A stretch of DNA of 64,000 bases from Octopus vulgaris (lineage: Eukaryota): contig CATOCA020000001.1 of assembly GCA_951406725.2 (NCBI GenBank), positions 6,262,001 through 6,326,000 on the forward strand, in the 5' to 3' direction. Both the position numbers and the translations under genes were made by a program. How positions within the stretch are numbered: position 1 is the first letter of the stretch; the number at the start of each line of letters is the position of its first letter. This document shows positions 20,561-63,544 of this stretch, one piece after another. Under the pieces are notes generated by a model. It was not told where the DNA came from, did no database searches, and saw only the letters and a program-made list of their open reading frames with translations.

Positions 20561-21729
20561 GAATTATTCTTTTAGATCAGTATTTCTCAACGAGGATATC
20601 AGAGGAGAGTTTCAGGGAGTCGCTGGCGATGTATCGTGATGATCAAAAATCCAACCTGCTAAAATTTGGTTAGTGATTCAAACTGCAGACTCAACGCAAA
20701 ATGGTCACATTTAATTCAAAGCGTTAAAAATGGTATGAAAACAATTGGTATGAGTTCACAAAGTCCAAACGATTAATAGGGAAAAACCCTCCAGGCTACA
20801 TCCCGAAAATTCATTTCTTTGCCGAATTTCTACAATGTTTACGGCGATTCGTCTTGCTTTTTTTATTTTTCATGCAATTTACGCATGCTTGCACGCGTGG
20901 TGAACACAGTTCACGTCAAACAGCTGACTGAGTAAAGTTCACTATTCAATGCATGGGAGAAGGCCTAAACAAACACATTATCGATTTTTGCACTTGCGAG
21001 ATGAATTTCGGAACAGAAATAGCGCAGTTCAATTTTCATTCGCCTAAACTTTAAGTGACCCATGTTTGGTGGTTCTACGATTTGTTGGCTAGGAGGAGAT
21101 GTGCCGGGAAGTAAAAGACACAGACACACACACAGATACACAGATAGACACACAAGTTGAGTTTTATATATATAGATTTACGTTCATGCTTTATTCTTGT
21201 TTTCAGTAAAAAAAAAGTAAGTAAAATGAAATCATGAAAGTGTATTTGAGGAAAAATGTGTATGAATGCTTCTAAAACTGGGGTACAGGAAAAATCCTTT
21301 GATACAATACAGTTGCTTGTGGGGTCCCATCGGATTTAACGACCCAACCGGGTTTACAACCACTGCGTATTTAGGGTCTACGAAACTCATGGTTCGCTAG
21401 TTTTGTATATATATATATTACACCCCCCTCCGAGTATGGTTACAGATGTGTGTAGGAGTGCGTTTGTGTTTGTGTGTGTGAGTTTGGTGTTTTCTTTGAT
21501 ATTATTACGCGTTAAAGCTATAATATTTTTATAAATTTCTTCACACTAATTTATCGAAATTTAATTTTTTAGCTTTAAATATCCAATCATGAAAACAAAA
21601 ATATATTTGTCATGTGGAACAGGGGTGAATTTTAGTTCCTTCAGAGAATCTGCAATTTGAAGTTAATAACATTGAAATCTCTGACATTTCCTATTTTCTT
21701 CTTTTACAGATAAATCTACGCCTGGCAAT

Positions 21730-21920
21730 ATGTTTCACCACGTAGTATCATATAGACGGTCTCTTGCGTTGATACTGTGTACGATATTGTTTTTGGAGAC
21801 TCAAGCTGATTCAGATATATGCAACACATGTACTTGCAATTCACTTACAACGAGAATAAATTGTGCACATCGCAATTTACCATCGATTCCACAACCAATT
21901 CCGACGAATGTTGAATATTT
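21730..21920 (+). CDS. Exon: signal peptide + LRRNT
   Basis: Acceptor ttttacag at 21709; [64 protein letters not shown]; phase-2 donor gtaagt at 21921. Confidence 0.92.
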
Positions 21921-25296: not shown

Positions 25297-28200
25297 GTTA
25301 TATTTCTTCTTCTTTTTCTTCTTCGTTATCTTTCTTCTTTTTCTTCCTTTCATTCTGAAGTCAAAGTGTTTGATATCGTATCACAAATATTTTCCAAATA
25401 ATCTATTTTACTCTTTCTCTACTGCTATAGAGATCTGCGAGGGAACAAGATTTCAACCATCAAAGAAGGAGCATTCACGGGGCTTTCGAATTTAAAGACA
25501 TTGTAAGTTCGTTCAGTTTCTTGATACTATTTTCCGAAAGTAATAATTGATGCTGATATATAAGCTCACAAATGTATAAAATTTCAGACTGCGCCAAACA
25601 AAATCAATTCGAATTTGTAGAATGAACACGATTTAGGAATATACAAAGAGAATATAAGAGAGCGAGACAATGTGAAAGAAAGAGAGAGAATTTGAGAGAG
25701 AAAGTGAACTAATAGGAAAAATATAACGTGCCTTTATTGTAGTTGCTTTGTTTCAATTCGCATCTCAATAACTCATTTTTGTTCCCCAAAAGTTTTGTTA
25801 TTTATGCATTCTATCTGTAAACCTGAAATACTTACTGTACTTGTAAGCTGGAATATTTGCCTGATACAATTAAACTGCTGATATATTTCTTGTAAGCGTG
25901 TGTTTTCTAATATTCTTGTGATAATGAAGCGATATGAAATAAATAATCTCTCTCACCACATTTCCACAAGGGTGAGTGGGAATATGTGTGATGTGAGTGT
26001 GCATACCGCATTCCGTCGTTGATACTATGAATATAAGAATGCGTATGAGTGCATTTGAATATGTTGATTTCTGATTCCGTATATTCCCTGATTTTTCAGC
26101 CATGTCTTCTCGCCCAATATTTATCGATCTATCCTTGAATTATTTCCTGATATTTTAAGAACATTTTCAGTTTCATCTTGAACGCCATAATTTTCAACGT
26201 ATCTTCTTCGTCTTCTTCTTCTTCTTCTCCTCCCTCTTCTTCTTCTTCTTCTTCTTCTTCTTCTTCTCCTTCTTCTTCTTCTTCTTCCTCTACTTCTTCT
26301 TCTTCTTCTTCTCTTCCTCTTCCTCTCTCCTGCTGCTCCTTCTCCTCCTTCTTTTTCTTTCTTCTTCTTCTTCTTCTTCTTCTTCTTCTTCTTCTTCTTC
26401 TTCTTCTTCTTCTTCTTTCTTTTCTTTTCTTCTACTTCTACTCCTCCTTCTCCTTCTTCCTCTTCTAATTTCTTTCTTCTTCTTCTTCTTCATTTTCTTC
26501 TTTAAATTCTCTTCCTCCACCACTCGCCCCTCCTCCTCTTTTTCCTCTTGTAATTCTCCTCCTCCCTCCTCTCCTGCTCGTTCTTCATTTTCTTCTTCTT
26601 TTCTTCTTCTTCTTCTTCTCCTTCTTCGTCTTCTTCTTCTTCTTCTTCTTCTTCTTCTTCCTTCTCCTTATTCTTTTTCTTCTTCTATCGCTTCTACTTA
26701 TTTCTTCTTCTTCTTCTCCTACATCCTCTTCTTCTTTTCAACTTTTTCTCTACTCCTCCTCCTTCTCCTCCTCCTTCTTCTTCTTATTCTTCTTCTTTTT
26801 CTTCTACTCCTACTTTTCCCCTTCATTGCTTCCTCCTCCTTTTTCCTCTTCCTTCTTTCTACTTCTTTTTTTCATCTTCTTTCTTTCGTCCCAATCCTCT
26901 CCGCCCCTCCTCCTCTTTTTTTCTTGTAATTCTCCTCCTCCCCTCCTCTCCCGCTTCTTTTCTTCTTCTTCTGCGTCTCCTTCTAATTCTTCTTCTTCTT
27001 CTTTTCCTCCTCCTCCTTTTTCTTTTCTTCTTCTTTCATTCTTCTACTTCTTTTTTCTTCTCCTTATACTTCTTCTTCTTCTTCTACTACTACTTTCTAC
27101 TTCTTCATCTACTTCTCCTCCAACTCCTCTTCTTCTTATATTCTTCTTTTTGTTATTCTCATCCTCCTCCTCCTTCATCTTCTTCTTCTTTTTCATCTTC
27201 TCCTACTTATTCTTCCCCATTCATTCTCCTCCTCCTCCTTCTTCCTCCTCCTCCTCCTTCTTCTTCTTCTTTTACTCCTTTTCTCTTCTCTACTTCTTCT
27301 CTTTTACCATCCTTCTCCTCCTTCTTTCCTCCTCTTCCTTCTTCCTCTTCTTTTTCTTCTCTTCTCTTCTTCCTCTCTTCTTCTTCTTCTTCTTCTTCTT
27401 CTTCTTCTTCTTCTTCTTCTTCTTCTTCTTCTTTCCTTCTTCTTCTTCCTTTTCTTCTTCGTTATCTTTCTTCTTTTTCTTCCTTTCATTCTCAAGTCAC
27501 AGTGTTTGATGTTGTATCACAAATATTTTCCATATAATCTATTTTACTCTTTCTTTACTGCTATAGATATCTTGGTTACAACAACATTGCAACCATCAAA
27601 GAAGGAGCATTCACGGGGCTTTCAAATTTAAACATATTGTAAGTTCGTTCAGTTTCTTGATACTATTTTCCGAAAGTAATAATTGATGCTGATATATAAG
27701 CTCACAAATGTATAATATTTCAGACTGCATCGAAAAAATCAATTCAAATTTGTAGAATGAACACGATTTAGGAAGATACAAAGAGAGTATGAGAGATTGA
27801 GACAATGTGAAAGAAAGAGAGAGAATTTGAGAGAGAAAGTGAAATAATAGGAAAAATATAATGTTCCTTTATTGTAGTTGCTTTGTTTCAATTCGCATCT
27901 CAATAACTCATTTTTGTTCCCCAAATTTCAATGATTTTGATATGAATTTGTATTAGAAATGGTAACGTTTGTTAGTTTACATGTTTGCATCAAATATATT
28001 TTAGCTGAAGTATATGTGTATGTTCATATATAAGTGTAGTTCTGTGTGAAATGTGACTATATTTTTCCTTTATTTTATATTTTACATCCTCCTCCATTTC
28101 TTATTTCAATATTCTCCTTCGTGTTTCGATATTATCATTCAAATTCGAATTTTGTCATTCACTTCCCGTTATTTATGTAATAGAGCAACTGAAGTGGAAG

Positions 28201-31200
28201 CGGAAAATATATATTCGAATAATATAGTCACATACATTCTATCTGTAAACCTGAAATACTTACTGTACTTGTAAGCTGGAATATTTGGCCTGATACAATT
28301 AAACTGCTGATATATTTCTTGTAAGCGTGTGTTTTCTAATATTCTTGTGACAATGAAGCGATATGAAATAAATAATCTCTCTCACCATATTTCCACAAGG
28401 GTGAGTGGGAATATGTGTGATGTGAGTGTGCATACCGCATTCCGTCGTTGATACTATGAATATAAGAATGCGTATGAGTGCATTTGAATATGTTGATTTC
28501 TGATTCCGTATATTCCCTGATTTTTCAGCCATGTCTTCTCGCCCAAAATTTTCATTCTATCCTTGAATTATTTCCTGATATTTCGAAAATATTTTCAGTT
28601 TCATCTTGAACACCATGATTTTCAATGTGTCTTCTTCTTCTTCTTCTTCTTCTTCTTCTTCTTCTTCTTCTTCTTCTTCTTCTTCTTCTTCTTCTCCTTC
28701 TTCTTTTTGTTCTTTTTCTTATTCTACTTCTTCTCTGCCTTTTTCATCATCTTTTTGTCATTTCGTCTTCTGCCTCCTCCTTCTTCTTCTTCTTCTTCTT
28801 CTTCTTCTTCTTTTCCTTCTTCTTCTTCTTCTTCTTCTTTTTCTTTTCTTTCTTCCACTTCTACTTCATCTTCTTCTTCCTCTTCTCTTCTTTTCTTTTT
28901 CTTCTATTTCTCCTCCTTCTCCTGGTCCTCCTCCTCCTCCTCCTCCTCCTCCTCCTTCCTCTTCTAATATTTTTCTTATTATTATTCTTCATTTTCTTCT
29001 TTAAATTCTCTTCCCCCTCCACTCCGCCCCTCCTCCTCCTATTTCTTCTTGTAATTCTCTTCCTCCCCCTCCTCTCCTGCTCCTTTTTCTTCTTTCTTCT
29101 TTTTCTTCTTCGTCTTCTTCTTCTTCTTCCCCTTCTTCTTCTACTTCTACTCTCAACTTCTTCTTCTACCCTTCCTCCTCCTCCTCCTTCTTCTTCTTCT
29201 TATTCTTATTCTTTTTCTTCTACATCTACTTTTTCCCTATCATCCTCTTCCTCCTCCTTTTCCTCTTCTTCTTCTTCTTCTTTTTTTTCATCTTCTTTTT
29301 TCTACCCAATCCTCCGCTCCTCCTCCTTTTTTTCTTCTTGTATTCTCCTCCTCCTTCCACTCCTGCTCCTTTTCTTCTTCTTCTCTTCTTCTTCTAATTC
29401 TTCTTCTTCTTTTCCTCCTCCTCCTTCTTTTTCTTTTCTTCTTCTCATTCTTCTATTTCTTTTCTTCTTATATTCTTCTTCTTCTTTCTACTTCTCTACT
29501 TCTCCTCCTACCCCTCTTCTTCTTCTTATATTCTTCTTTTTGTTATTCTCATCCTCCTCCTCCTCCTCCTTCATCTTCTTCTTCTTTTTCATCTTCTCCT
29601 ACTTATTCTCCCCTTCTTCCTCCTCCTCCTCCTCCTCCTTCTTCTTCTTCTTCTTCTTCTTCTTCTTCTCTTCTTCTCCCTCTTCCTCCTCCTCTTCTCT
29701 TCTTAACTTCTGTTTTTGTTATTCTCTTTCTCCTTCTCCTCCTCCTCCTTCTTCTTCTTCTTCTTCTTAGTGCTTCTACTTCAACTTCTACGTCTTCTTC
29801 TTCTTCTTGTTCTTCCATTCCTTCTTCTCTTCAATTCTTCTTCTTCCCCTCCCCCCTCCTATCCTCCTTCTTTTTCTTCTTCTTCTTCTTCTCCTCCTTC
29901 TTCTTCTCCTTCTTCTTCTCCTTTCTTCTTTCTACTTCTCCTCCTCCTCTTCCTCGTCTTTCTTATTCTTATCTTCTTCTTGTTATTCTCTTCCTCCTCC
30001 TCCTCCCCCCTTCTTCTTCTTCTTTTACTTTATCTTCTACTCCTTCTTTCCTTTTATCAGCCTCCTCCTCCTTTTTCCTCCTATTCCTTCTTGCTCTTCT
30101 TTTTCTTCTACCTCTTCTCCTTTCTTCTTCTAATTCTTCTTCGCCTCCTCCTCTTCCTTCTTCTTCTTCCTTTTCTTCTTCGTTATCTTTCTTCTTTTCT
30201 TCCTTTCATTCTCAAGTCACAGTGTTTGATGTCGTATCACAAATATTTTCCATATAATCTATTTTACTCTTTCTTTACTGCTATAGAAATCTTTGGAAGG
30301 AACAACATTTCAACCATCAAAGAAGGTACATTCACGGGGCTTTCAAATTTTAAATATTGTAAGTTCGTTCAGTTTCTTGATACTATTTTCCGAAAGTAAT
30401 AATTGATGCTGATATATAAGCTCACAATTGTATAATATTTCAGACTGAACTAAACAAAATTAATTCAAATTTGTAGAATGAACACGATTTAGGAAGATAC
30501 AAAGAGAATATGAGAGAGCGAGACAATGTGAAAGAAAGAGAGAGAATTTGAGAGAGAAAGTGAAATAATAGGAAAAATATAATGTTCCTTTATTGTAGTT
30601 GCTTTGTTTCAATTCGCATCTCAATAACTCATTTTTGTTCCACAAATTTCAATGATTTTGATATGAATTTGTATTAGAAATGGTAACGTTTGTGAGTTTA
30701 CATGTTTGCATCAAATATTTTTAGCTGAAGTATATGTGTATGTTCATATATAAGTGTAGTTCTGTGTGAAATGTGACTATATTATTCCTTTATTTTATAT
30801 TTTGCATCCTCCTCCATTTCTTATTTCAATATTCTCCTTCGTGTTTCGATATTATCATTCAACTTCGAATTTTGTCATTCAGTTCACGTTATTTATGTAA
30901 TAGAGCAACTGAAGTGGAAGCGGAAAATATATATTCGAATAATATAGTCACATACATTCTATCTGTAAACCTGAAATACTTACTGTACTTGTAAGCTGGA
31001 ATATTTGGCCTGATACAATTAAACTGCTGATATATTTCTTGTAAGCGTGTGTTTTCTAATATTCTTGTGACAATGAAGCGATATGAAATAAATAATCTCT
31101 CTCACCATATTTCCACAAGGGTGAGTGGGAATATGTGTGATGTGAGTGTGCATACCGCATTCCGTCGTTGATACTATGAATATAAGAATGCGTATGAGTG

Positions 31201-34200
31201 CATTTGAATATGTTGAATTCTGATTCCGTATATTCCCTGATTTTTCAGCCATGTCTTCTCGCCCAAAATTTATCGATCTATCCTTGAATTATTTCCTGAT
31301 ATTTTGAGAACATTTTCAGTTTCATCGTCTTCAACGCCATGATTTTCAATGTGTTCTTCTTCTTCTTCTTCTTCTTCTTCTTCTTCTTCTTCTTCTTCTT
31401 CTTCTTCTTCTTCTTCTTCTTCTTCTTCATCTTCTACTTCTTCTTCTTCCTCGTCTTCTTCTACTTCCTCTTCTTCTTCTTCTTCTTCTTCGTCTTCTTC
31501 CTCGTCCGCCTCTCCTCCTGTTCCTCCTCCTCCTTCATTTTCTTCACTTCTTCTTCTTCTTTTTCTCCTTCTTTATCTTCTTCTTCTTGTTCTTCATTTC
31601 TTCTATTCTTCTTCTTCACCTCCTCCTCCTACTTTTCTTCTTCATTTTCTCTTCCTCCTCCTCTTCTCCCCGCCTGCTCCTTTTTCTTCTTGAAATTCTC
31701 ATCCCTCCCCTCCCACTTCCCATCCTGTTCCTTTTTCTTCTCCTTCTTTTTCTCCTCCTTCTTCTTCTACCTCTTCTTCTTATTATTATTCTTCTACATC
31801 TTCTTCTTCTCCTCGTCCTCCTACTTCTTCTTCTTCAACTTTCTACTTTTCATCTCTTCTCCTCCACATCCTTCTTCTTCTTCTTTTTCTCCTTCTTCGC
31901 CTTCATCGTCCTCCTCCTATTGCCTCCGCTTCCTTCATCTTCTTTTTCGTCTTCTTTTTCTTCTCCTTCTTTTCTTCTTCTTCTTCCTTTTCTCCTTCTC
32001 TTTCTTCTACTTCTTCTTCTTTTCTTCTTGTAATTCTTCCTCCCCCTCTCCCCCTCCTCATCTTCATTCTTTTTCATCTTCTTTTACGTCTTCTTCTTCT
32101 CCTCCTTCACCTCATCCACCTTCGTCTTCCTATTACCTTCTTTTTTTGTTATTCTCTTTCTCCTTCCCCTCCTCCTCCTTCTTCATCTCCGTCTTCTTTT
32201 TCCTGCTTCTCTTCTTCTTTTTCTACTTTTTCTTCTTTTTTCACTTCTTCTCCTTTTTCTTCTCCTTCTTTTTCTTCCTCTTCTTCTTCGTTTCCTCACC
32301 CTCCTCATTCTCTTTTTAATCTTCAACAACTTCTTCTACTCTACCCACTGCTCCTCCTCCTCCCATTTTCCTCCCCCTCCTACATCTCCTTGTCCTCCAA
32401 CGTCGTTATCCTACTTCTTCTACTCCTCCTCCTCTACCTCCTCCTTCTACATCTTCTCCCCCTCCTCTTTCTCCTTGTCATCTTCTTTTCCCCTTCCTCT
32501 CCTCTCCTTCTTCTTCTTCTTCTCATCAATCTCTTTCCTGCTCCTCTTCTTCTCGTATTATTTTCCTATAATTTTGTCCCTTTTCATAAAGAACAATATT
32601 GAATATGTTATCGCAATTCACACTATGTCAATCTAACCAATATTGTTTCCTGCTTCAGATCTCTTTCCAACAATAAAATTTCAAGGATTGAAAAAGAGAT
32701 GTTTCAAAGGCCTTCAAAACTTAGAGATATTGTAAGTTCTTTCAATGTTGTCGTTTATACTTTTCTTCTTATCCTTTCCCACTTCCCATCTCCCACTTCA
32801 CTCTTCTTTTCCTACTTCTCTATGCATTTCTTCGTTTGATATCTCTAACCGTTTTTGTAGAATTGGTCCTCCAACCACGACTCAGAAATCCTCTTCTAAC
32901 TTCCTTTCATCAATTCTTCTTTCTCATATCCGCCTTCTTCTTCTCCACGCTTGTCCCTTGTCCTGCAATTCTTTTTTCTTCCTCTTGATTTTGATAGCTT
33001 CTCTTTTTCCTCTCATTCTCCTTCTTGTTCCTTTCCTCTTCTCACTACTCCTAATTCTCCCTCCTCCTTGTCAGCCTCACCCTTCCTTCTTTTCATCTTT
33101 CACTTCTTCTCTTTTCTTTCATAGTGATCTTTATCTGTTTGATTTTTTCTTTTCTTCATCTTCTCCCTCCTCCTTCATCCTCGAGGACTCAACGCGTTCT
33201 TGCTTCTGGAAAGGTGTGAGCAACCTGGAAATCCATCTGGCAGACACCTTTTGCATATGCAAATGGTCATGAATGATATTTTCCACAGACCCGGTACTAA
33301 TCTTGACCTTATGGGCTATTTGGCGAATAGTTATGCGTTGACCTTCCAAAATGGCAGCCTCAACTTGACGGACAGGCGTCTCATCAACGGCAGAAGGGGG
33401 CGACCAGATCTGGGAGCTGTTTCCACAGAATCCGACTATGTTTGAATTCACAATGCCAGCGTTTTACAAGGTCATATGATGGGGCATCATCACCATAAGT
33501 TACTTTCATTTCATCAAAAGTCTCCTGTGGTGTGTGTCCTTTCAAATACAAAAACCAAATCACTGCTCGACACTCAACAGGCACCATGTCACACTTGACT
33601 GAGTTCAAACACCTGTAAATCAAAAACCACAATTTGTGCAGAGCTGAAATTCGCCACTTCATCTATAGAGGGATAGGTAAGTGTACATGCAAAATTTCAG
33701 CTAGATCAAACAAGGGCAAGTGGGTCAGGGGCATTACTTATTGAACGCCCCTCGTACTATGTCTTTAAATTTAATATCCCCTTATTTCCATGTTTTCTCA
33801 CTCTCTAATACTGTAAATCATATTCAGTTCTCATATTCGTGTTATATTTATTTGATTCAGTCTGAACATGTCAATGACTGTCAGCTGATAATTGTCTGCA
33901 TAAAAATGTTATTCCTGAAAATATATATGTGTATGTTCATATGTATGTATGTATCTGCACTATTAATACAAGTTTTAGCTACTATTTTCTTACACATTGT
34001 TCTCTTGATTCTGTGGTGCTGTCTGGTTATGTATCCACACTTCCACCGAAATATTTTTTGTTATTGTGGTTGTTGATGATGTAATTTTTCTCTTCTTCTC
34101 TTCTTCTTCTTCTTCTTCTTCTTCTTCTTCTTCTTCTTCTTCTTCTTCTTCTTCTTCTTCTCCTACTTCTCCTCCTCCTTCTTGTTCGTTATCTTTCTGC

Positions 34201-37200
34201 TTTAGTTAGTTAGTTAGTTAGTTAATTTGGCTCAAAAGCAAATAGCAAGGCCATGTAGGGGGACATGGAGTTAAATACAGGGTGGTGTTCATGTAAAGAG
34301 TTCAGGCCACTTGAGGTCCAGGGAGGCTTTGAACAAAGCGGTCGTCGGCATCTTTACCATCTCGTCTGGCAGTTTGTTCCACGGATCCGCAACCCGGACG
34401 GAGAAAGCTCCTCTCCTTCGATTGAGATGAAATCGTCGCAGGTAGAGCTTTTCGGAATGACCCCGCAGCCGACGCTCTGGAGCAGGAGTGAAGAACAGCT
34501 CTTTCGAGAGGTTACACTTTCCGCTTATGATGTTGTGGGTGAGAATGAGATCACTACGGCGGCGGCGTTTTCAAGAGAATAAAGGTCGAGCGTCTTCAGC
34601 CTTTCTTCGTCTTTCTTCCTCCATCTCCTCTTCTCTCTTTCTTCTTTTCTTTTCTTGTCACACTATTTCCATCTTTTTCTTCTTCTTCCTCCTCTCCTTC
34701 CGCGTCTTTGTTCGCTCCCTCCCTCCACCTCCTTCCTTTCCTTCTCTCTCCACGACCTTCTCTTGATGCTCTCACACTCCACTTTCCTTCCTTCTTCCAC
34801 TTCTTTTCTTCTCCTCTTCTTCCGCTCCCTTCTTTCGTCTTTTTCTTTCTTTTATCTCCCCCAAGCACTCCTTCACGCCACTCTTTCTTTTCTTCCTTTC
34901 TTCTACTCTTTTGATGTCTTCCTTTTTCCTTATCTTTTTACTCTTTCTTTCTCTTCTTCTCCCTTTCAACCATCTATATTCACTCTTTCTTTATTTTAAG
35001 TTCTTCTTTCTTCTATTTTCCGTATAATTTCTTCTATCTCCTTTATTTTTCTTCCTCCATCTTTTCTTGTTCTTTTCTTCCTTCTTTTTTTTGTTCTTTA
35101 TTGTAGTTGCTTTGTTCAATTCGCATCTCAATAACTCAGTTTTGTTCCCCAAATTTCAAAGGTTTTGATATGAATTTGTATTAGAAATGGTAACGTTTGT
35201 TAGTTTACATGTTTGCATCAAATATTTTTTTTAGCTGAAGTATATGTGTATGTTCATATATAAGTGTAGTTCTGTGTGAAATGTGACTATATCATTCCTT
35301 TATTTTATATTTTACATCCTCCTCCATTTCTTATTTCAATATTCTCCTTCGTGTTTCGATATTATCATTCAACTTCGAATTTTGTCATTCACTGCACGTT
35401 ATTTATGTAATAGAGCAACTGAAGTGGAAGCGGAAAATATATATTCGAATAATATAGTCACATACATTCTATCTGTAAACCTGAAATACTTACTGTACTT
35501 GTAAGCTGGAATATTTGGCCTGATACAATTAAACTGCTGATATATTTCTTGTAAGCGTGTGTTTTCTAATATTCTTGTGACAATGAATCGATATGAAATA
35601 AATAATCTCTCTCACCATATGTCCACAAGGGTGAGTGGGAATATGTGTGATGTGAGTGTGCATACCGCATTCCGTCGTTGATACTATGAATATAAGAATG
35701 CGTATGAGTGCATTTGAATATGTTGATTTCTGATTCCGTATATTCCCTGATTTTTCAGCCATGTCTCCTCGCCCAAAATTTTTCGTTCTCTCCTTGAATT
35801 ATTTCCTGATATTTTAAGAACATTTTCAGTTTCATCTTGAACGCCATAATTTTCAATGTATCTTCTTCGTCTTCTTCTTCTTCTCCTCACTCTTCTTCTT
35901 CTTCTTTTTCTTCTTCTTCTTCTTCTTCTTCTCCTTCTCCTTCTTCTTCTTCTTCTTCTACTTCTTCTTCTTCTTCTTCTTCCTCTCCTCCTGCTGCTCC
36001 TCCTTCTTTTTCTCCTCTTCTTTTTCTTCTTTTCCTTCTTCTTCTTCTTCTCTTCTTTTCCTTTTCTTCTATTTCTACTCCCCTACTCCTTCTTTCTCTT
36101 CTAATTTCTTTCTTCTTCTTATTCTTCATTTTCTTCTTTAAATTCTCTTGCTCCTCCTCCTCCTTTTTCTTCTTGTAATTCTCCTCCTCCCCTCCTCTCC
36201 TGCTCGTTTTTCTTCTTCTTCTTCTTCTTCTCCTTCGTCGTCTTCTTCTTCTTCTTCTTCTTCTTCTTCTTCTCCTTCTCCTTATTCTTTTTTTTCTTCT
36301 CTCGCTTCTACATATTTCTTCTTCTTCTTCTCCTACATCCTCTTCTACTTTCAATTTTTTCAACTTCTCCTCCTCCTCCTTTTTCTTCTTATTCTTCTTC
36401 TTTTTCTTCTACTCCTACTTTTCCCCTTCATTGCTTCCTCCTCCTTTTTCCTCTTCCTTCTTCTACTTCTTTTTTCCTCTCCTTTCTTTCTTCCCAATCC
36501 TCTCCGCCCCTCCTCCTCCTTTTTTTCTTGTAATTCCTCCTCCCCTTCCTCTCCCGCTTCTTTTTATTCTTCTTCTTCTGCGTCTTCTTCTAATTCTTCT
36601 TCTTCTTCTTTTCCTCCTTCTCCTTTTTCTTTTCTTCTTCTCATTTTTCTACTCTTTTTTTCTTCTTATACTTCTTCTTCTTCTTCTTCTACTACTTTCT
36701 ACTTCAACATCTACTTCTCCTCCTACTCCTCTTTCTTCTTCTTATATTCTTCTTTTTGTTATTCTCATCCTCCTCCTCCTTCTCTTCTTCTTCTTTTTCA
36801 TCTTCTCCTACTTCCCCATCATTCTCCTCCTCCTCCTTTTTCCTCCTCTTCCTTCTTCTTCTTCTTCTTTCTACTTCTTCATCTACTTGTCATCCTCCTC
36901 CTCCTCCTCCTTCTTCTTCTTTTACTTTTTCCGCTACTACTTCTTCCCTTTTACCATCCTCCTCCTACTTTTTCCTCCTATTCCTTCTTCCTCTTCTTTT
37001 TCTTCTCCTTCTTCTCCTTTCTTCTTCTACTAATTCTTCTTCTTTTTCTTCATCTTCGCCTCCTCCTCCTCCTCCTTCTTCTTCTTCCTTTTCTTCTTCG
37101 TTATCTTTCTGCCTTTTCTTCCTTTCATTCTGAAGTCACAGCGTTTGATGTCGTATCACAAATATTTTCAATATAATCTATTTTACTCTTTCTTTACTAC

Positions 37201-38335
37201 CACAGAGCTCTTTGGGGCAACAGCATTTCAAGCATCAATGAAGGTGCATTTACGGGGCTTTCGAATTTAAAAGAATTGTAAGTTCGTTCAGTTTCTTGAT
37301 ACTATTTTCCGAAAGTAATAATTGATGCTGATATATAAGCTCACAAATGTATAAAATTTCAGACTGAACTAAACAAAATTAATTCAAATTTGAGGATCGA
37401 ACACGATTTAGGAAGATACAAAGAGAATATGAGAGAGCGAGACAATGTGAAAGAAAGAGAGAGAATTTGAGGGAGAAAGTGAAATAATAGGAAAAATATA
37501 ATGTTCCTTTATTGTAGCTGCTTTGATTCACTTCGCATCTAAATAACTCATTTTTGTTCCCCAAATTTCAATGATTTTGATATGAATTTGTATTAGAAAT
37601 GGTAACGTTTGTGAGTTTACATGTTTGCATCAAATATTTTTAGCTGAAGTATATGTGTATGTTCATATATAAGTGTAGTTCTGTGTGAAATGTGACTATA
37701 TTATTCCTTTATTTTATATTTTGCATCCTCCTCCATTTCTTATTTCAGTATTCTCCTTCGTGTTTCGATATTATCATTCAACTTCGAATTTTGTCATTCA
37801 CTTCACGTTATTTATGTAATAGAGCAACTGAAGTGGAAACGGAAAATATATACTCGAATAATATAGTCACATACATTCTATCTGTAAACCTGAAATACTT
37901 ACTGTACTTGTAAGCTGGAATATTTGGCCTGATACAATTAAACTGCTGATATATTTCTTGTAAGCGTGTGTTTTCTAATATTCTTGTGACAATGAAGCGA
38001 TATGAAATAAATAATCTCTCTCACCATATTTCCATAAGGGTGAGTGGGAATATGTGTGATGTGAGTGTGCATACCGCATTCCGTCGTTGATACTATGAAT
38101 ATAAGAATGCGTATGAGTGCGTTTGAATATGTTGATTTCTGATTCCGTATATTCCCTGATTTTTCAGCCATGTTTCTCGCCCAAGATTTATCGATCTATC
38201 TCTTCATATTCTTCTCCTCTTCATTTCCACTTCATTTCTTCTTCTTCTTCCTTTTCTTCTTCTTCGTCTTCTTCTTCTTCTTCTTCTTCTACTTCCTCCA
38301 CCATTCCTCCTGCTCCTCCTCCTCGTCATTCTTTT

Positions 38336-42531: not shown

Positions 42532-42582
<51 letters not shown>

Positions 42583-43622: not shown

Positions 43623-43654
<32 letters not shown>

Positions 43655-43704: not shown

Positions 43705-45082
43705 ATATATGTATATATATATATATGTACATACGAAGGGAATCCACAAAGTTTCCTGCTGCAAATTCACTCACAACGCTTAGTTGACCCAAGGTTATAG
43801 TTAATGTTATTTGTCCAAGGTGCCACACAGTTGGACTAAAGAATCCATGGATGTGAGAAGTAATTTTCCTGCCACAGAACCATGTCTATATGGAGGATGA
43901 TATTTCTACCATGGATGAGAATGTTGACTAAAACCCATATTGTGCACATAAGAAAGTCTCCTTGTTATTTTGTTAGTTTTGTATTTTATTCCCTTCCATC
44001 TTTTGCTGTTTTGTTATCAGGTTTTCACTTAGGATAATTAAGTTAGATTGAAGGAACCTATTCTTGTTCAAACAACACTTCCCACAGAACTATAAAGAGG
44101 AATAAACAATTGTAGTGTGTAATATCAGCATTTACCCTGTTAGTGTTGACTGAAACGCAATTTAGTATTGAACAGGAAAAACATATTTATTTACTTTTTA
44201 CTTATTTTAAAGTGTGTAATATTTGTCTCTTTTTCAGATATTTGTTCAGCAACCCAATAGAAAAATATGAAGATGGCGCTTTCTTATTCCTTCCCAGCAT
44301 AGCTACAATGTAAGCAAACAAGTTCTTTTTGGTTATAAGAAAATAAAAATAATAAAATGAGGTCATGAAATTCTCAATTCCTCGTTAAATGTTGTTGGTA
44401 ATAAACAACAATGATTTGATTTAAATTTCAGTGGATCAACATGATTTCCGAGCACTGTGTTTTATTATCGAAAAGTTTATGTTCAAATATCAGAAGGTTG
44501 ATTTGATCTAGTTTACCCCATGTTTATAAAACACATAATTAACTGGAGTCGAGAGAGTGGCCTACATACAAACCTTCTTGCACACATATATAAATTTTCC
44601 TGTGTGTGTATGCGTATGTGCATATATAAGCATACACACACACATATATATATATTGTTATTACTTATTATATCCTTATGACAACGGAGTTATCAGAAGG
44701 AATAAGATCCACAAAAATTCCATTCAAATATTTCTGATGACTGCTGTATTTGCCTCTGTATTTCTACCACGAAACCATTTGGTATAATATTCTTTCTACG
44801 ATAAGCACAATGCCTGCAATTTTGTGGCTGGGGGTTTGTCGATTACATCCACCCTAGTGCTCGGCTGGTACTTAGTTCATTGACCCCAAGAAGGTGAAAG
44901 GCAAAATCCTCCTCGAAAATTTGAACTCAGAACATGAAAACAGAACACCCTGTAACTGTTGGGTCGATTAATACGCAGTATTACTGTATCGCAATATTTT
45001 GTGATTTGCCAATCTGACAGAAACGGGATGGTTCAATATGTATGATATCTCCATTCTTCTGTGTTAATATATATATATATAT

Positions 45083-47149: not shown

Positions 47150-50100
47150 ATTATTATTATTATTATTATTATTGTTGTTGTTGTTTTTGTTGTTTGTTGT
47201 GTTTTTGTTGTTGTTGTTGCTGTTGTTCTTGCTGTTGCTCTTTTTAAAAACACTGAAAATATTGTATAATAGCCATCTCAATATGGCTAACCACTAACGG
47301 TGGGTGTTACTGTAGCTTGTAGCCCCAGGAGATCATCGTTTCCAGCTGGCTTTAGGCACACTATCTGTGCCCTTATGGTATTTGCAAAGGGAGGTCATCC
47401 CTCTCTCATAAGCCTAAGTGATACGCACGGACCGCAGTTTCGAGGTATTTGCCTCTTGTCAACGCACGGTAATCACCGGTTTACGATCGTAAACCGGTGA
47501 ATACCGTGCGTTGACGATGATCTCCTGGGGTTAAAAGCTATAGTAACACCCACCCTTAGTGGTTAGCCATATTGAGATGGCTATTATACTTTACGTTGTC
47601 GAGCCGTTACTGTTTACATCTCGTTCAGAGATTTATTATTGACTGAAAATATTCAAATTGATATATCAAAATTGAATATTAATTTTCCCCTTCTTAATTA
47701 GGAGTATTACTATACATGTCTTTACCGCTGAAGCTATAAAATGTACAACACTGTAATCTCTCAGTTTCTGCGCTGGTACGTCTCTAGTTTTAAAACCAGT
47801 TGCTACATAGAATAAACACGACCTTCTTAGCGCCAAAACCGCCCGTCTAAACGAGTTTTCTCAGACAGAGCGGCGCAAGATCCCTACCACCAAATTCCCG
47901 ACACTAAAATATCCCTAAACTACAATAAAATAGAATCGTTTCAAGTGGCTAGTAATCTTATTTAAAGGTACTTTATTATTCAATATCTAAGCTAAAAGAG
48001 AAAAGAACCTTAGTGCTTCCACTTTCTACTAGAAACCATTTCGCAATATTGATGTTATTAACAACACTTAAAAAGATGAATGCCATAGCGTTTAGAAACC
48101 TGCTCAAATTTTATAATCTTTGTTTCTTGTCAAATCACATAGGAATTTCTCTGTTGATCTGAAACGCATTCAGAGTTCTCTTTATTATTACAGTGACCTG
48201 GAAAACAATAACCTTATGAAGTGTGGATGTCACTTGCCAGCCTTCGTTAAGTATATTAAAGAAGTCTATAACAGAACTGTTGATGTCATTGGCACGTGTC
48301 AGGAAGGCTCAGGGAAACGAATACCTATACTGGATTATGTCAAAGTAAGTAAAATTCTCGTTTCGTTTTTTCTTTTATTATTAATACTAAGAAAATCCGG
48401 GTTATTCTCTGAAGCTTGCAATATCATGTCTTATGAAAGGGAAATTATAGATAAAGATATGAGGAATAAACGTTTTACCATTCGCACGCTTTACATTCAC
48501 ATCTTCGCTCTACCGAACTTATAGATTCAACTGTATCACACAAACCATCAACAGCACACACACACACACACATACACACACACACACACACACGGGCGCG
48601 CGCGCACACAGACATACACAAACATACATACGCAAACATTCACAACAGCGCACACATGAATGTACGCTCACATGTACACACACATATGCACACAGACATA
48701 CTCTCTAACCCTCTCTCTCACGTACACTCTCTCTCATAACTACATAAGTATAGAACAAAAACAAGTCATCGAAGCGGTCACGATTGACAACAAAATGTCG
48801 CTAACAACCATAACTGGTTGAGAGGTTAACCAAACGGTTAATCAAACATTCATTTAGTTAATTCGTTAACAAATTGTTAACAAAGTGACGAATAATGAAG
48901 TGAAATAGAACCAGTACGTGTGTTTTTTATTGGCTTAATGACCCTCCGAGATACAAAAAAAAATGTTCCAGTATTCGATCCCCAGAAGAGGACAACTTGG
49001 TAACAAAGCCAAACACACTATCTTCAGTTTGGGTTTCGTGCCCATTCTCATCTGTTGTCGTGAATATTGGCTAACGACTGAAAGAGTCTGATCTCAAACA
49101 GAAGCGGCCGAAATGGGATTCCTCCGAAAAAACTGGAGTAGTTTACTCGACACAGTGTGTACCTTGGAGATGAGGGAGTCTCTCCAGATCAGGTCGGTAC
49201 TTTTCCGTATTGTGCCACTACATTTCCGGTAATGCGGACATGCGATTAGGATGTCACATGACAAAATCGCAAGATCGATTCTTTAAAATGATGCAAAACA
49301 GCAGGGAATGTAGAGGTAGACCAAAAAGAGATGGCTAGAAAATATCCATAGCCTCATTTGGTCATGCTTGAGAATTCAATCAGTATGCGTATTGGCAGTT
49401 GCCTCTGATAGTACCCTATGCAGGAGGTACCTGAGGCACCAGATGTCCTCATGACCCTCCCAGGAATAATGAGCGTTGAAGATGGTAGATGGATGGATAT
49501 ACAGAGTGTCGGTATTAAATATAACGATTTTATGTCCCATTATATTAAGGAAAACGTAGGGTATTGGTAAGCAAAGGCGTTAGAGAGCATAAAGTTGTAG
49601 CTGAGAAAAAAGCTGATATGGCGGACTGAAAGCCATCTAAATATTCATGAAATTTGGTGGGGGGAGAGCCAGTCGATTGGATCGACCCCAGTACGCAACT
49701 GCTACCCCGAAAGGATAAAAGCAAAGTCGACCTCTGTGGAATTTGAACACAGAACGTGAAAAAACAGACGAAATACTGCTAAGCTTTGCGCCCGGTGTGT
49801 TAACGTTTCTGCCAGCTTGCCGCCTTGAAAGCCATCTAAATATTGGAAGAGAGAAACCTGTATTCATGATAATTCATGACGGTTATCACAATTCAGACAC
49901 CATCACTGTTGTTCAATGCTCTGGGAACACTGTAAAGTCAGCAAGACGTGACATGGACAGTTGCAGTAGAATCTATAGGATAAAACTCGAATACGAGAGA
50001 AAAGTTGCTTCAGAAGATCAAATACCAAGACAAGAAAGGGCAAAATGCAGGCAAAACATTCAGTAATGTAAATTGTCTGAAAAGGATGGCACACTTCATG

Positions 50101-53100: not shown

Positions 53101-55988
53101 TATATGTCTAACATGTATTGATTTCAATACTAACACGCATACATTTGTTTTTACATCTGAAAGAAAATATTTCTTGTTATTGCTATGCATTGCATTATTT
53201 GGTTCATAAATACAGATATTTACTTGTATTCTGTAGATTACTCGTTATTTCAACGGAATTTACAGTGTCAAACATGTTCAGGAATTAAATGCAATAAATC
53301 GGAAGTGACAAGCTGTCCAGGAACAGAGGTAAACTGGAATATTACTTTCTTCCTTTTCGTTAAAATATATCCACAACCGTCACTCGAAAGCTATTAAGTC
53401 CACATAGATTGTACTATGCTTTCGCTAGTTTTTTTATGCGCCTGCGTAGACATACACACACCCTGTCGATCTTCTTATTCATGACTCAATGGGACGAGAA
53501 GGATGTGACGATTGAAGAGAGAAATAGATGAACATCACTAGGTTGGGACACATTTCACTTGATTAAACTGGGACAAAGTGAAATAAAGTGCCTTGTTCAA
53601 GGACGCAACGTTCTACCCTGTCCAGGAATCCCTATTCAAGAAACGAACACACGAACTTAAAGTGAGCTTTCTCCGACAAAACATGGCTGTCCTTAGAGTA
53701 GGATGTTTGAATGTATGTGGCCAGAAGTCAACTTGGGATCAAGATTCCTTGTCGAATGACCTCGGGCCACTAACCTTAGAGGGGATAACTGCATGTTGGA
53801 TGTGGCCCTACCATCTTGCAGAGATTAAAGGGAGCGGATTAAGGAAAAAGTTAAGAAGTAAATGACCGTCTCCTTCGTCTGTTGGCCATAGCAAAAGTGG
53901 TTGTTTGATAGACAAGATTATAAAATGTTCGAAACAGATTAAATCTGCCCTCACATCAAGAAGTACAATAAGCTTCACAGAACATAACGGATGGGGGTCA
54001 TATTATTTCAACAGGAATAGGTGAAAGCTATACGATTAAACGCAGCTAAAACACAAATTAAAATTGCCAGGCATATCTCTGAATACACAGTTGTACATTG
54101 GTGAAAGAAACACAAGAGAAACAATAAAAGACACCGGTAATGACACAGATCAATGCTTCACATTAACTGATCTACGAGAATATAGGAGAATAGAGCGTGA
54201 CATAAGAGCATGGCTGCAATCTGTTGCCTGTTTCATTGTCTGTTCTGATCTCAGACCTTTCGGTTTTCTTGAAGCTGAGTTAGCTTATGTAATGATTCAT
54301 TCATTTGCAATCACAGACTCCATTGGCTCTTTTGAAGACGCCAGCCTTCGGACACTATCATTGGTTATTTTTTCATGACATCCTCACTCAGTTTGGGAGA
54401 TCCAATTTTCTTTCTAAAACTTTTCCAACATTGGAAGAAACAAGTTTCAATTTCAAACTAAGGCAATGCAAATCTTATTTCTAACTTCAATATCTACATT
54501 TTCATTGCTTTTATTATTGTTAGGTGTTTGCGATTATTAATTGCGTTTTCGTGATGGATTCTTTTCTTTAAATGTTCTTCTCCATTTCTGATATTTTTCG
54601 CTTTCAGAATGTCCATTATTAAGTTAACAAGACCTTGGTTGTTTTCTCTCCAAATTTTATACTAATATACCGTATTTTCATATAAAATATACTTGCAAAA
54701 TAAAACGAAGTTTCTCTTGTGTTCGTTTTATGTATTTTCTGTTTTATTTGCTTGGACTGAGGAGTTCAATCTGACAATTATATTTCAGTATCATCTTTGG
54801 GTAAAGGCATATTAGTTTCTCTTGTTGGTGAGTTTTGTACGCATGATTTTCCGTAAATTTTATATGAAAAATTCCTCTTGAACATTCCTCCAGTAAGAAG
54901 AAATTTTAGAGAATTGATACATCTTTATTGGGATAATTTGACCTATTTTAAGTTGGGCGATGGGTGACAGTGCGATGCGGTTTTGATACAGACCGTGAGC
55001 CGATGGCCATATCTACTTGTGATCCGAGAGGTTTGGACACTGTAAGCATTTAAAACATGATTTTTGAATACTAAATAGCAATAAACTTTACGGAATTTTA
55101 CTTATGCTGTTAACTTTCAACAAATCGTCAACTCTTTTACGGTTTCATTTATTGCTTTTGGGTATTTTAAAGCAATGATTAAACTTACTTGCATGGTAAA
55201 CATCCCCAGTGGTGTTGTTTCTGTTGTTGTTGCTGTAATTAGCAGTAATCGTCCTAATAAATATTGTTGTTGTAGTGTATAATTTTCATATCTATTATTA
55301 CAGCCTGTATGCCGATTCGCAATATCAATGAACGGTGTTAAACTGAAGACTGAAAGGTCCTGCAGCACATACAGAAAATGTGTTGAAGCTATGAGAAACA
55401 ATACCCTTACATGCAATAAACGGACGAATGGCACGTCTTGTACTGGTTGTTGCGTCGGACACTTATGTAACAAGAATGATTTCATTGGTAAGTGTTATTT
55501 ATTGTCTAATATAACACTAACAAGTTTATTACAAATTGATAGTTAATAAGAACATTTTATAGTAATTAATATACGGGAAAATATTTTGATGTGTGTTTAC
55601 GTGTGTGTATATATATACTGTTTGCAATGCTCTCTCTCCCTCTCTCCCTCTCCCCCCTCTCTCTCTCTCTCTAACACACACACACAGATGGAATCAAACA
55701 CCACGACATGAAGGAAAAGAGTAAAAGAGAGCACTTTTGGCGAGTGAGCAAAATATTGGTTAGAAAGCTGAATGCCTGGAACATAATTTCGGCGATAAAC
55801 TCGCACGCAGTCGCAGTAGTTCGGAATGATGCTGGAAAACTGAAGTGGACAGAGGAGAAGCTAAAGGAGTTGGACAGGAAGTCAAGAAAGGTCCTATCGA
55901 TGTATGGAACCAATCATCCATGTGCAGGCATTGATAGCCGATACACGAAGAGAGCGACAGGAAGAAAGGGAATGATAAGTGTGTGTAT

Positions 55989-56034
<46 letters not shown>

Positions 56035-56371: not shown

Positions 56372-56949
56372 TTTTAAGTGTATATGTGATTATGAATGTA
56401 TATTTTTATCTACGTATGTGGGTTTTATGTGCATCTATGACGTGTGTCTCATTTATAAACGCAGCGATTATTTTCTATATCAATCCATAGGATGGACCAA
56501 ATCCCTCGTAATTCGTTTGATTTTTAAAAAGTTCAACGAATATAAAATCCCCTGCTGAGAACATATCAAGAGCCGTGAGTAGATATCTGCCCTCTCTCTC
56601 TCTTTCTCCGTACACAGACGCGCGTGCGCGCACACATATGCACTGAACATGCGCACACATGCATACACATACACACTCTCACGCACACACACACACACAC
56701 ACACACATGCATATTTTATAGAAGAAATGTGAAACATCAAATAAATAGTGAGGTTTCATGAAATTCAGACAATCAACTCCATTTACTGATAGTAAACTAT
56801 TACATAAAACTTTCTTTTTTAACTTACTGAATTTTTGCTGGTCAATAAAAAGACTGTTCTATCCACTATTTTGTCTTTATATATTCCGTCTTATAATTTC
56901 CGATTCTGACAGTAAATAAAATCCTACTCAAATATTCACTAATCTTGTG

Positions 56950-57586: not shown

Positions 57587-57867
57587 CGGCTTTTTCAGAT
57601 TGAGCATGACCTTTCAACCGTGACGGGAACATTTAGAGTTGAAGACTGTGGGTAAGCAAATGCTTCTAACACATTTATTCAAATTTATTTGCTTTTGTTC
57701 CAAACATTCGATTTTATCGCATGTATTATACGTCACAATAGTCAACAGTGTTGTACTTGTGACCCACAATATACTAATTCATACATTCAATGAAATGTTT
57801 AAGTGTTTTATCCATGTTTTATTATACAAAGGACAAACAAACCCATATAAAGATACAGAGAGAACTG

Positions 57868-59747: not shown

Positions 59748-62700
59748 ATGTATGTATATTTCTAGCTAGCTAGCTAGCTACATACATACATACATACCGA
59801 CATACATGTATGTATTTATTTTTTATTTCAGCTCAAACAGAAATAAAATATTTGCTATTTACTGTACAGTATTTAGCGAAATGACTGAAAGTCAACTGTG
59901 GCACAATATCTCCGAAACTTTGAACAAATCCCAGGCATTTCTTAACTTAGGAGTTAAGAAAAGCCACATGAAATTTCTTGATGAAAGTAAGTATCGTGTT
60001 TCTTATTAATTTTATCATCATTACCGTCATAATTAGCTTCATCAATCACCAACCTCTTCGTCGTTGTCGTCATCATCAACCACAGTAGATGATACAAAGT
60101 ACACAGACTCTCTCCCCCTCTCTCTCTCTCACACACAGCTATTTATTTACATTTTCTCAACGCTTGGATAATTTAAAAAAAAAGCATTTTATTTTGCGCT
60201 TTTCCGTTTCTTGTCCCTACGGAACTGTTTGTCTTTGCTCAGTTTCTTTTTAATTATACCAATTAACCGAGGGCAAAAATGTTTTCTTCTAATTTTGTAT
60301 AGAAGTAGAAGATGCAGACTCTAATGGGCAGAAAAATTCAAACAATTCCAGTACTTGCTTTAATTCAAACAGGAAAACTATTTAGTGCTGCAAATAATTT
60401 TCCTCAGCGAAAATTCATTTCGTACGAATTGATCAAGTTAATTTTTACATTAGGATCGATAGATACACACACACAGCTCATACGATTTAAACAGTGTCTA
60501 AGGGATATAAGAGAGGAACAAATCATATCCCATTGCCGGAAAAGGATATATTTTCACTTCGTTTCCATTCATTTCATTTTACCATCGCCAAATCAATATA
60601 ACATCTACCCATTTCTAGCGTACATTAGGTTTTGCGCTTCCGGTCAGTATGTCTAAAGAGTGATCAATATATTGACGAAATTCAACACTAGAGGCCGCGA
60701 AACAGACTAGCATTCTGAGTAGTCATATCCCGTAACCAGTTATATATTGCTCGAGAAAATATAATATATATATATATACATATGCACACACCTCTATTTC
60801 TATTTTATTTATTGTTTTTTAAGAATATATAAGAAAATATATATATAAGAATATATATATATAATCTACAGGATCTCAAGTAGTTATGCAGTTTCAATCG
60901 GCTAAATTTAATTGAACAATACAAAAATTACATCAATTTAAATGCAATGCCATCTTCAGCTGCATAACTAATGAATTAGAATTTTAATAAGTAGGACAGT
61001 TTAATGTAATTTTTCTCAAATATTTGAACAGAGCAAGAATATGGAGAAAATCATATTGTCGCCATTTTAGTTAAGAATAGACTACACTTCCAAGAATTGC
61101 ATGGAGCCTGGTTGGGGTGGGGGTCCTTGTGTTGTAAGGGATTGTAATTCATTTCTAAATCATTTATCTCTTTACAAACTACTAAATGAAAAACTAGAAA
61201 TCTGTCTATTTTGAATAAATATATATGCTCTCCGTATATGTTTGCAACACTTCGTGTATCATTGTCCTCAAATCAGCCAGCAGGTGGTCCAAACAATATA
61301 TTTCCAACATTAACTGCTACTACTACTACTACTACTACTACTACTGGCTTCTCTTATATCCATGTTTTGGTTCTTTTTCAGTGGTTTGTGATGAAAGCAC
61401 AACATCAACTAACAATCGAGCTTTCTCTTGGCCAATGACAAAAATAGGAACTACTGCGGAGATCCCATGTAATGGAAATGTAGCCACCAGGCATTGGTTC
61501 GTTTGTATTGATTTATTTCTACTCAAAATTTGAAGCTTTCAGCGCCATCCTATTGTGAGAGAATGTTACTTGGTAGAGCAGATAACAGCTTTATAGATTA
61601 ACAAGATAGAATTAAACGTCCATCGGTTGCAATCTCTTGTCCCAGCATTTTTACACTTTATACATTATTTGATATAATTTAGCCTTGTCCTAACTATCTA
61701 GGTTTGCTTTGTCGCCAATATTATACAAAGCTTTCATTTCATTCGTTTTTATGTTCTCAGTTCAAATTCCCCTAAGGTCGACTTTGCCTTTAATTTTTTC
61801 GGGTCGATGAAATAAATACCAATTGAGCACTGGGGTTGGTGTAAACGACTTATCCCTTCCCCTGAAATTGCTGGCCTTGTGCCAAAATTTGAAACCAATA
61901 TTAGACAAGGCTTTATGGTGGAGAGCTAGCGGAATCGTTACCATGCCGGACAAAATGCTTAGCAGCATTTCTTCTGACTTTACATTCTGAGATCAAATGC
62001 CACCAGGGTCGACTTTGTCTTTTACCCTTACGGGATCGATAAAATAAGTACCACTGGGGTCTATGTAATCGAACTACCCCCGCCCAAAATAGCTGCCAAA
62101 ATTTGAAATCAGCATTATTCAAAGATTTAAAGATTCTTGTAAGTTCCAGAATTTCACAAAATAATTGTAGCAAAGAAAGTACATACCTAGATACAGCCAA
62201 TATAATCTATCAGTGATTCTGTTGGATTCAGGCTAATACTATTTATTCAATTTTATGATTACTGTAGAGCTATATATCTTGCTAGTACATGATGGTCATC
62301 CTGGGATTTCACTCATCACAGACTATGTAACACGGTCTCTCTTCTCTCATTTCTACCACGTCATTCCACAGGTTAAGCAACTAACTTGATCCTCCCAGAG
62401 GCTGAGCTTTATTAGTTTTAAGACAAGACCAACTGGTGGAATCACTCAAATCTGTGCATATGTAGGAAAATATACATAAATCCATTGCTGCCGCTGTTGC
62501 TACTGATGTCTATGGTGGCGAAATATTAGCAACTAATTCCCCCATTCAACTTGAACTAACAACTTGGCTCCTTAATGCTGCATCACTTACACCGTTCCAA
62601 CTAATCTTGTATTGAATAATCATAAAAACAAGAAATTATTGTAAATAAAAACAGATACAGGAATATTGTTTTTATATCTGAACTCTAGTTAGAAAATATT

Positions 62701-63533: not shown

Positions 63534-63544
63534 ACATACACACG

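Follow-up and report, generated by a model that had tools for sequence, protein, structure and literature searches.

A gene built of one-repeat exon cassettes

The window analysed here is a stretch of 64,000 nucleotides from the genome of Octopus vulgaris (G000:C31:6262001-6326000), and positions follow its numbering unless they carry a contig prefix (C). It holds a gene for an ectodomain of leucine-rich repeats (LRRs), whose exons map in the order signal peptide, LRRNT, five LRR cassettes, terminal LRR, LRRCT and Cys-rich domain, followed 3' by a SEA-like domain, a hormone-receptor motif (HRM), a second SEA-like unit and a 53-nt last exon (Table 1). Each cassette exon is in phase 2-2 and specifies a single 24-residue LRR. 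An earlier reading of this DNA from its letters only (the sequence-only reading) had described four paralogous 72-nt exons (e1, e2, e3 and e5 in Table 1), all of which proved to be bounded by AG and GT in phase 2-2, although e3 is frameshifted as assembled. Its counts were reproduced (12/72 differences between e1 and e2, two of them in synonymous codons; 14/72 between e1 and e5), as was the run of 69 identical nucleotides on the donor side of all four exons. Its inventory was incomplete, since two LRR exons had been overlooked: e4, of a second type (B), and the terminal LRR. The cassettes are not a product of chance resemblance, for a 25-nt donor motif occurs in 70 exact genome copies against none for a reversed control; comparison of the window with itself by BLAST was dominated by simple repeats.

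Genome matches to the LRRNT exon number 33, of which 15 reach at least 92% identity and the other 18 lie at 68-78%. From 18 loci we extracted 181 LRR exon matches (139 of type A, 27 of type B and 15 terminal), and 162 of these passed our filter as intact, among them 24 of the 27 type-B matches; the 123 intact type-A exons encode 110 distinct peptides. Cassette number differs between paralogues and ranges from 2 to 24 internal cassettes per locus, at a median spacing of 2.8 kb, as counted within the fetched stretches, beyond whose ends some arrays run. Proteins retrieved with the first coding exon (22 in all) belong to O. vulgaris or O. sinensis wherever the name gives a species, and several are annotated "adhesion GPCR G6-like".

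Selection at the face codons and probable exchange among cassettes

Selection statistics were computed on 65 intact type-A exons from 12 young genes, out of 101 intact type-A exons; broken exons, the more divergent loci on contig C30 and loci fetched later were left aside, and the set of 101 shows the same four variable sites plus codon 22. Across the 65 exons, codons 1, 3, 4 and 23 specify 10, 10, 10 and 12 amino acids, respectively, and most scaffold codons are invariant or nearly so. Pairwise nonsynonymous divergence (pN) is 0.59 at these four face codons, where synonymous divergence (pS) is 0.25 (0.17 elsewhere), and only 0.04 in the 17 non-face codons, giving a dN/dS of 0.73 for the exon as a whole. 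The four codons were chosen after the data had been seen, hence the a-priori xxLxLxx set was examined too; it yielded an omega (dN/dS) of 9.3 versus 0.38, with a likelihood-ratio statistic of 38.8. Both this test and the site estimates used an allele-frequency codon model that ignores linkage, implemented by ourselves after the manner of GenomegaMap; site values of omega lie between 10 and 18 at the four face codons and do not exceed 1 at codons 6 and 22 in the young set. Tree-based estimates of omega were dropped, as recombination violates their assumptions.

Neutral simulations, with theta up to 0.35, never attained the observed counts (0/300 per codon), and a model-free comparison found at least three recurrent bases at 7/10 face positions versus 1/9 fourfold sites (p 0.02). 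A mutation hotspot at the face codons is unlikely, because 64/65 exons have T as the synonymous third base of codon 1 and because the 588 face residues include no stop, Pro or Cys; 19% of them are Tyr, Trp or Phe. Variation at the same codons recurs in type-B and terminal exons as well as among O. sinensis proteins, and two DNA runs carry three alternative bases at several variable-codon positions.

In an alignment-based AlphaFold model of one paralogue (P0014; predicted local distance difference test, pLDDT, 80 overall and about 90 in the LRRs), each strand is formed by codon 23, the split codon and codon 1 (E63-65, E87-89 and so forth), with codons 3 and 4 just after it. A fold search with this model recovered typical LRR ectodomains, including the variable lymphocyte receptors (VLRs), and a root-mean-square deviation of 1.2 Å over 161 columns to 4k5u. 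The same sheet is described as the variable, ligand-facing side of VLRs (PMC3900441). The sequence-only reading had placed the amino-acid changes on the binding face, and there the site model bears it out, with omega far above 1 at all four codons and these lying on the modelled strand and turn. The likely binding surface of the family, judged from this model, consists of one-repeat exon cassettes that vary almost only at four exposed residues. A single-sequence AlphaFold model of a second protein (P0010) was set aside for its pLDDT of 41 and over-long strands.

How this variation arose is a separate matter. The sequence-only reading had contrasted diversified exons with nearly identical introns and had proposed cassette duplication with positive selection. 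The contrast itself is real (nucleotide diversity 0.05 in introns against 0.15 in exons), but synonymous exon sites are also three to four times more diverged than introns, so that it overstates selection and the introns do not provide a fair clock. Synonymous divergence in exons is 0.15-0.19, versus 0.01-0.05 for introns; in eleven disjoint cassette pairs whose introns differ by 1%, pS is still 0.15 and pN at the face 0.55, close to the values for random pairs. Diversity is highest, at 0.26, over the first 24 nt of the exon, and falls to 0.01-0.03 immediately outside the exon. Four-gamete incompatibility between intron sites increases with distance (p 0.0005), 40 changes of gene label occur on the intron tree, where the minimum is 11 and shuffled labels give 47, and exon states are distributed almost at random on that tree. 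Codons 1, 3 and 4 are linked to one another and not to codon 23, such that the 5' and 3' patches of an exon are unlinked; nor is there a link between codon 23 and codons 1, 3 and 4 of the following exon in 42 pairs. The introns are therefore no neutral clock; what an exon contains is largely independent of the genealogy of its introns, which calls for gene conversion. Selection at the face codons stands, while simple duplication followed by point divergence does not.

This pattern is the one described for gene conversion opposed by selection (PMC3924837). From the comparison of cassettes we infer germline conversion among loci: short-tract conversion between cassettes of different genes would homogenise introns and scaffold codons while reshuffling exon patches, unequal crossing-over would alter the number of cassettes, and diversifying selection would retain many alleles at the four face codons. 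Two other mechanisms were considered. Conversion templated by mRNA was set aside in view of variable codons at the exon ends and of introns that have themselves recombined, and deaminase-type hypermutation is not favoured by a germline substitution spectrum devoid of C/T excess.

Descent and expression of the family, and condition of the window copy

Between its SEA-like exons and its last exon, as well as in the 40 kb downstream, the window gene has no GAIN, GPS or seven-transmembrane (7TM) segment. Its ectodomain exons are nonetheless 92-99% identical to those of a 7TM-bearing locus (C31:2.87-2.95 Mb), and its last exon shares homology with the one that follows TM7 in a 7TM paralogue, in the same frame if TM7 is taken to splice directly to it. 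Both last exons end in ETNF, which we take to be a PDZ-type tail. A complete GAIN-GPS-7TM region was mapped at one locus. At seven loci, some 1.5 kb separate the second SEA-like exon from the last exon, and two further ends of this kind occur at 5.28 and 5.30 Mb, where two near-identical copies of the SEA-like and last exons (C31:5278279 and C31:5295361) stand behind one LRR array. The window copy has thus lost GAIN and 7TM, as have at least six further copies, with splicing that runs in frame to the former tail exon, and a transmembrane segment is absent from 4/4 GAIN-less database models. An internal deletion probably turned a receptor into a secreted ectodomain, and the intact GAIN-less relatives of the window copy are predicted to be secreted recognition proteins. 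The window gene is accordingly not a membrane receptor, and is in addition frame-broken as assembled; nothing in the analysis favours the chemosensory role that the sequence-only reading offered as an option.

Paralogue P0013 combines LRR, GPS and 7tm_2 matches above the Pfam cut-off. Three O. bimaculoides relatives (A0A0L8FLR8, A0A0L8GYR2 and A0A0L8HDZ7) appear in the group 3 list of PMC6408891, and homology reaches E 4e-115, 1e-83 and 7e-65 against the representatives of the clusters to which these accessions belong. By these homologies the window gene derives from the octopus expansion of LRR adhesion G-protein-coupled receptors (GPCRs) designated group 3 by Ritschard et al. (2019). The exon layout appears older than the young genes: five older paralogues are likewise built of 72-nt exons, and the layout is ancestral for that reason. 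In the two of these with full arrays, used as a control, face motifs are shared position by position, as judged by eye. A second cluster, of which two members were sampled, contains eleven older LRRNT-exon matches at about 70% identity (C29:13.4-18.8 Mb).

Several other loci and models depart from the common plan. The O. bimaculoides protein P0056, from the A0A0L8FLR8 cluster, adds a cytoplasmic Death domain to LRR, GPS and 7TM, a possible link to innate signalling. Models P0017 and P0018 of O. sinensis carry a Cys-rich Ly6-like unit in two or three tandem copies. For a 13-cassette array (C31:4183001-4233000), the fetched sequence contains neither a terminal LRR nor an LRRCT nor exons downstream of them; database model P0002 joins the array to ankyrin repeats ("MIB2-like"), either an annotation artefact or a real fusion. 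Two tandem family genes at C31:4981000-5068000, rich in indels of 1-2 nt, end after SEA exon 2 and SEA exon 3 within the fetched stretch. On contig C5 (C5:141880858-141891853), an array is partly duplicated as an inverted mirror image, with three exons identical on both strands and degenerate exon fragments close by; the fetched 80 kb contain no LRRNT exon.

Transcription was assessed in contigs of sequencing runs presumed to be RNA. Family exons are spliced there: two such runs show contig cover restricted to the exon and LRR-to-LRR joints. Twelve listed joints comprise 11 distinct 5' patches, five of which do not occur in this assembly, suggesting differences in repertoire between animals. 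The joint that bypasses GAIN (8447>9860, GT..AG) is present in 3/4 presumed RNA runs, from three studies, at a depth of 70-330. Database isoforms of O. sinensis decrease in steps of 24 residues (409, 385, 361 and 337 aa), suggesting exon skipping within a gene, though short-read models may mix reads from paralogues. Two family peptides are found in Table S1 of the O. vulgaris skin-mucus proteome (PMC10138644), one of 11 residues with at least four spectra in four files and one of 14 residues with at least one spectrum. The same table includes many-isoform octopus LRR proteins (LOC115225305 and LOC115230596), a relative matching P0073, and a peptide resembling the older C29 paralogues.

The window copy is damaged as assembled. 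In e3, compensating indels bring a stop into frame, and the reading frame ends at codon 134, or at codon 227 if e3 and e4 are skipped. The T that the assembly places at 30351 in e3 is found in 0 of 15198 depth in run X2 and in about 2% in X19, and the base-run indels of this copy look like assembly errors. The 7-bp deletion in LRRCT looks more like a real lesion, the seven bases being present in 10/10 other copies shown. A comparison of private indels, directed at pseudogene versus assembly error, gave window counts dominated by misalignment at an intron deletion. We give about even odds to a pseudogene or null allele and to mis-assembly.

The labels Ly6-like and SEA-like are tentative and derive from sub-threshold Pfam matches, from strand and helix order in the model and from motif resemblance; the SEA profile reaches E 0.013 in an Argonauta relative. 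Searches with the Cys-rich exon against PDB sequences returned chance matches only, and a search of the ESM Atlas with the Cys-rich/SEA region gave no usable match. Elsewhere in the window, a 363-bp tandem duplication with an inverted copy forms a near-perfect hairpin-like structure in the intron that separates e5 from the terminal LRR (42576-43625). Decayed transposon-like fragments lie in the gene flank and introns (18100-19200, 24300-25000, 55675-56028 and 63540-64000); by resemblance, we presume these to be mariner-like, GIY-YIG/Penelope-like and LINE-like.

Table 1. Exons and associated tracts of the window gene (window numbering unless a contig is given)
Feature	Position	Strand	Remarks
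Signal peptide and LRRNT cap exon	21710..21920	+	ATG at 21730; LRRNT E 0.043, below cut-off; 15 genome copies at >=92% identity
LRR cassette exon e1, type A	25431..25502	+	intact (DLRGN...KT)
Degenerate CTT/CCT pyrimidine tract 5' of e2	26200..27480	+	ends by eye
LRR cassette exon e2, type A	27567..27638	+	intact (YLGYN...NI)
Like pyrimidine tracts 5' of other cassettes	~28630-30200, 31350-32560, 35850-37120		ends by eye
LRR cassette exon e3, type A	30287..30358	+	frameshifted, stop as assembled
LRR cassette exon e4, type B (ISRIEKEMF)	32659..32731	+	73 nt, +1 in A run
LRR cassette exon e5, type A	37206..37277	+	intact (ALWGN...KE)
Terminal LRR exon	44238..44309	+	one per gene where found
Connecting strand and LRRCT exon	48194..48344	+	7-bp deletion private to window copy
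Cys-rich domain exon 1	53237..53328	+	tentatively Ly6/three-finger-like
Cys-rich domain exon 2	55304..55487	+	tentatively Ly6/three-finger-like; Pfam UPAR_LY6_2 E 0.28, below cut-off; beta-rich in model
SEA-like domain exon 1	56491..56574	+	+1 nt in C run; beta-alpha-beta-beta-alpha-beta order in model
SEA-like domain exon 2	57599..57651	+	codes for most of the 14-residue skin-mucus peptide
SEA-like domain exon 3	59832..59986	+	
HRM exon 1	61382..61496	+	Pfam HRM E 0.0062, below cut-off
HRM exon 2	62902..63071	+	
Last exon	G000:C31:6335860-6335912		beyond window, past second SEA-like unit

Function of the family and comparison with known systems

We favour, at a probability of roughly 0.62, the reading that this young, adhesion-GPCR-derived family is a germline repertoire of recognition proteins with a variable surface, both membrane-bound and predicted to be secreted, which would bind microbial or parasite ligands at body surfaces. 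Several observations weigh against it. The best fold matches are neuronal and matrix LRR proteins (NGL, LRRTM and the Nogo receptor), and group 3 is reported from axial nerve cord, suckers and skin, with a neural role proposed and no selected sites found in the part of the study used here (PMC6408891). The omega estimates come from our own approximate model, in which cassettes are treated as a sample. The runs are contigs taken as RNA by guess, in which all paralogues are pooled with no assignment to the window copy; one of them, X10, lacks the GAIN-less joint, and collapsed copies, the second haplotype or a sister species might account for the patches absent from the assembly. Of the family peptide motifs, six more are missing from the searched rows of Table S1 (PMC10138644), and the mucus peptides are common to membrane and secreted forms, so that shedding at the GPS would explain them as well. 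Finally, four exons of the window copy itself break the frame (e3, e4, LRRCT and SEA-like exon 1).

The same diversification could instead be directed at self ligands, giving arm, sucker and skin a protocadherin-like code for cell identity, wiring or self/non-self, in which secreted forms would act as decoys or tags. To this alternative, which we consider the less probable account though one to be taken seriously, the expression sites and the neural proposal just cited lend support, as do the neuronal proteins among the top fold matches and the variation of patches between animals. Fold similarity, however, reflects no more than a generic LRR scaffold, and omega values of 10-18 together with continual reshuffling are generally commoner in host-pathogen arms races; family peptides in mucus point to surfaces and defence, as does expression in gill and skin of C. 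minor (PMC6408891), and one group 3 relative bears a Death domain. A more ambitious form of the recognition hypothesis, which we regard as doubtful, holds that a VLR-like system evolved independently in octopus: signalling membrane receptors and secreted counterparts would share a convertible pool of cassettes, every animal would inherit a repertoire of its own, and single cells would multiply it by choosing among cassettes through skipping and possibly somatic conversion, yielding an antibody-like repertoire in mucus and tissues.

The remaining accounts fare worse. It is improbable that the gene is simply a membrane receptor diversified by recent cassette duplication and point mutation under positive selection, with introns as a neutral clock and skipping as the main source of combinations. 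Omega above 1 at the face codons, identical adjacent exons in some arrays and the 24-residue steps of the O. sinensis isoforms would all suit it, but synonymous exon divergence reaches 0.15 where that of introns is 0.01, exon states are near-random on the intron tree, the 7TM segment is missing, and short-read isoforms can arise from paralogue reads with shared exon ends. Rapidly evolving binding faces are frequent in reproductive proteins, and a gamete- or mate-recognition family under sexual selection might be imagined; this is highly improbable, as testis enrichment concerns group 2 rather than group 3 (PMC6408891) and family peptides occur in skin mucus. Least credible of all is an account without functional diversification, in which repeats turn over neutrally and the variation stems from local mutation hotspots or errors of assembly. 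The 19/181 exon matches that are not intact, several through indels of 1-2 nt in base runs, and the broken window copy would accord with it; it is largely refuted by the simulations, the DNA runs and the base-pattern checks. Against it stand quiet adjacent synonymous sites, variable codons free of stops, recurrence of the same variable codons in other exon types and in O. sinensis, and three alternative bases at several of these positions in two DNA runs.

What the favoured reading offers is a concrete candidate, a family with more than 100 distinct LRR cassettes whose variable face comprises four residues, which exists in membrane and GAIN-less forms and whose peptides occur in skin mucus; through it, octopus recognition of microbes, or of self, becomes directly testable. 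It also suggests a route from an adhesion GPCR to a secreted binder by internal deletion. For molluscs, a 2026 review of immune diversification cites fibrinogen-related proteins (FREPs), and the part considered mentions no cephalopod system of this kind (PMC13428168); our search, thin on subscription literature, found no paper describing this one. Each ingredient is known from other lineages; the same literature yielded no instance of their combination in an animal GPCR family.

Among the systems that share individual ingredients, the red/green opsins, at exon 5 (Fawcett and Innan 2011, PMC3924837), show a divergence peak under gene conversion, their introns being homogenised while selection maintains differences within a short stretch of the exon; they involve two genes and two fixed states, whereas octopus has over 100 cassettes, with 10-14 states at each site. 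Ciliate arrays (2019, PMC6564038) resemble the octopus genes in their phase-2 one-repeat exons, variable in number and scrambled between paralogues by ectopic recombination, but their exons measure 90 nt and the phrase "positive selection" does not occur in the main text of that report. Octopus group 3 itself (PMC6408891) is related by homology and by the LRR, GPS and 7tm_2 of P0013. In the sections used here, the published account notes LRRs in 5/22 sequences, finds no sites under selection and contains no cassettes, hypervariable faces, conversion or forms without GAIN and 7TM; the window gene, for its part, shares descent with adhesion GPCRs and lacks their GAIN/GPS and secretin-type 7TM.

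Lamprey and hagfish VLRs (PMC3900441) share with the octopus family an LRRNT, a variable number of 24-residue LRRs, a terminal LRR, a connecting strand and LRRCT, as well as a variable concave face on the solenoid and both membrane and secreted forms. In the VLR system, a germline gene that is incomplete receives cassettes in somatic cells, by conversion linked to a deaminase, whereas every octopus gene has spliceable germline exons. An incomplete germline gene with non-spliced donor cassettes is not seen, because the cassettes are exons with intact splice sites in complete genes and are joined by splicing. The window gene thus qualifies neither as an adhesion GPCR nor as a VLR, although its descent is from the former and its ectodomain is like that of the latter. 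In design it is closest to the LRR-ROCO genes of brown algae (Zambounis et al. 2012, PMC3341825; Teng et al. 2024, PMC11378527), which also encode one LRR per 72-nt exon, shuffle these exons and show selected sites on the concave face, and for which alternative splicing has been proposed as a source of diversity. Symmetric one-repeat exons of variable number and positive selection on the concave face are found in both. The algal proteins are intracellular GTPases with phase 0 exons, and 4/4 octopus family proteins have no Pfam match to a ROC-COR GTPase domain; the octopus family is set apart by phase 2-2 exons, an extracellular location, origin from an animal GPCR, predicted secreted forms and near-identical introns of kilobase length.

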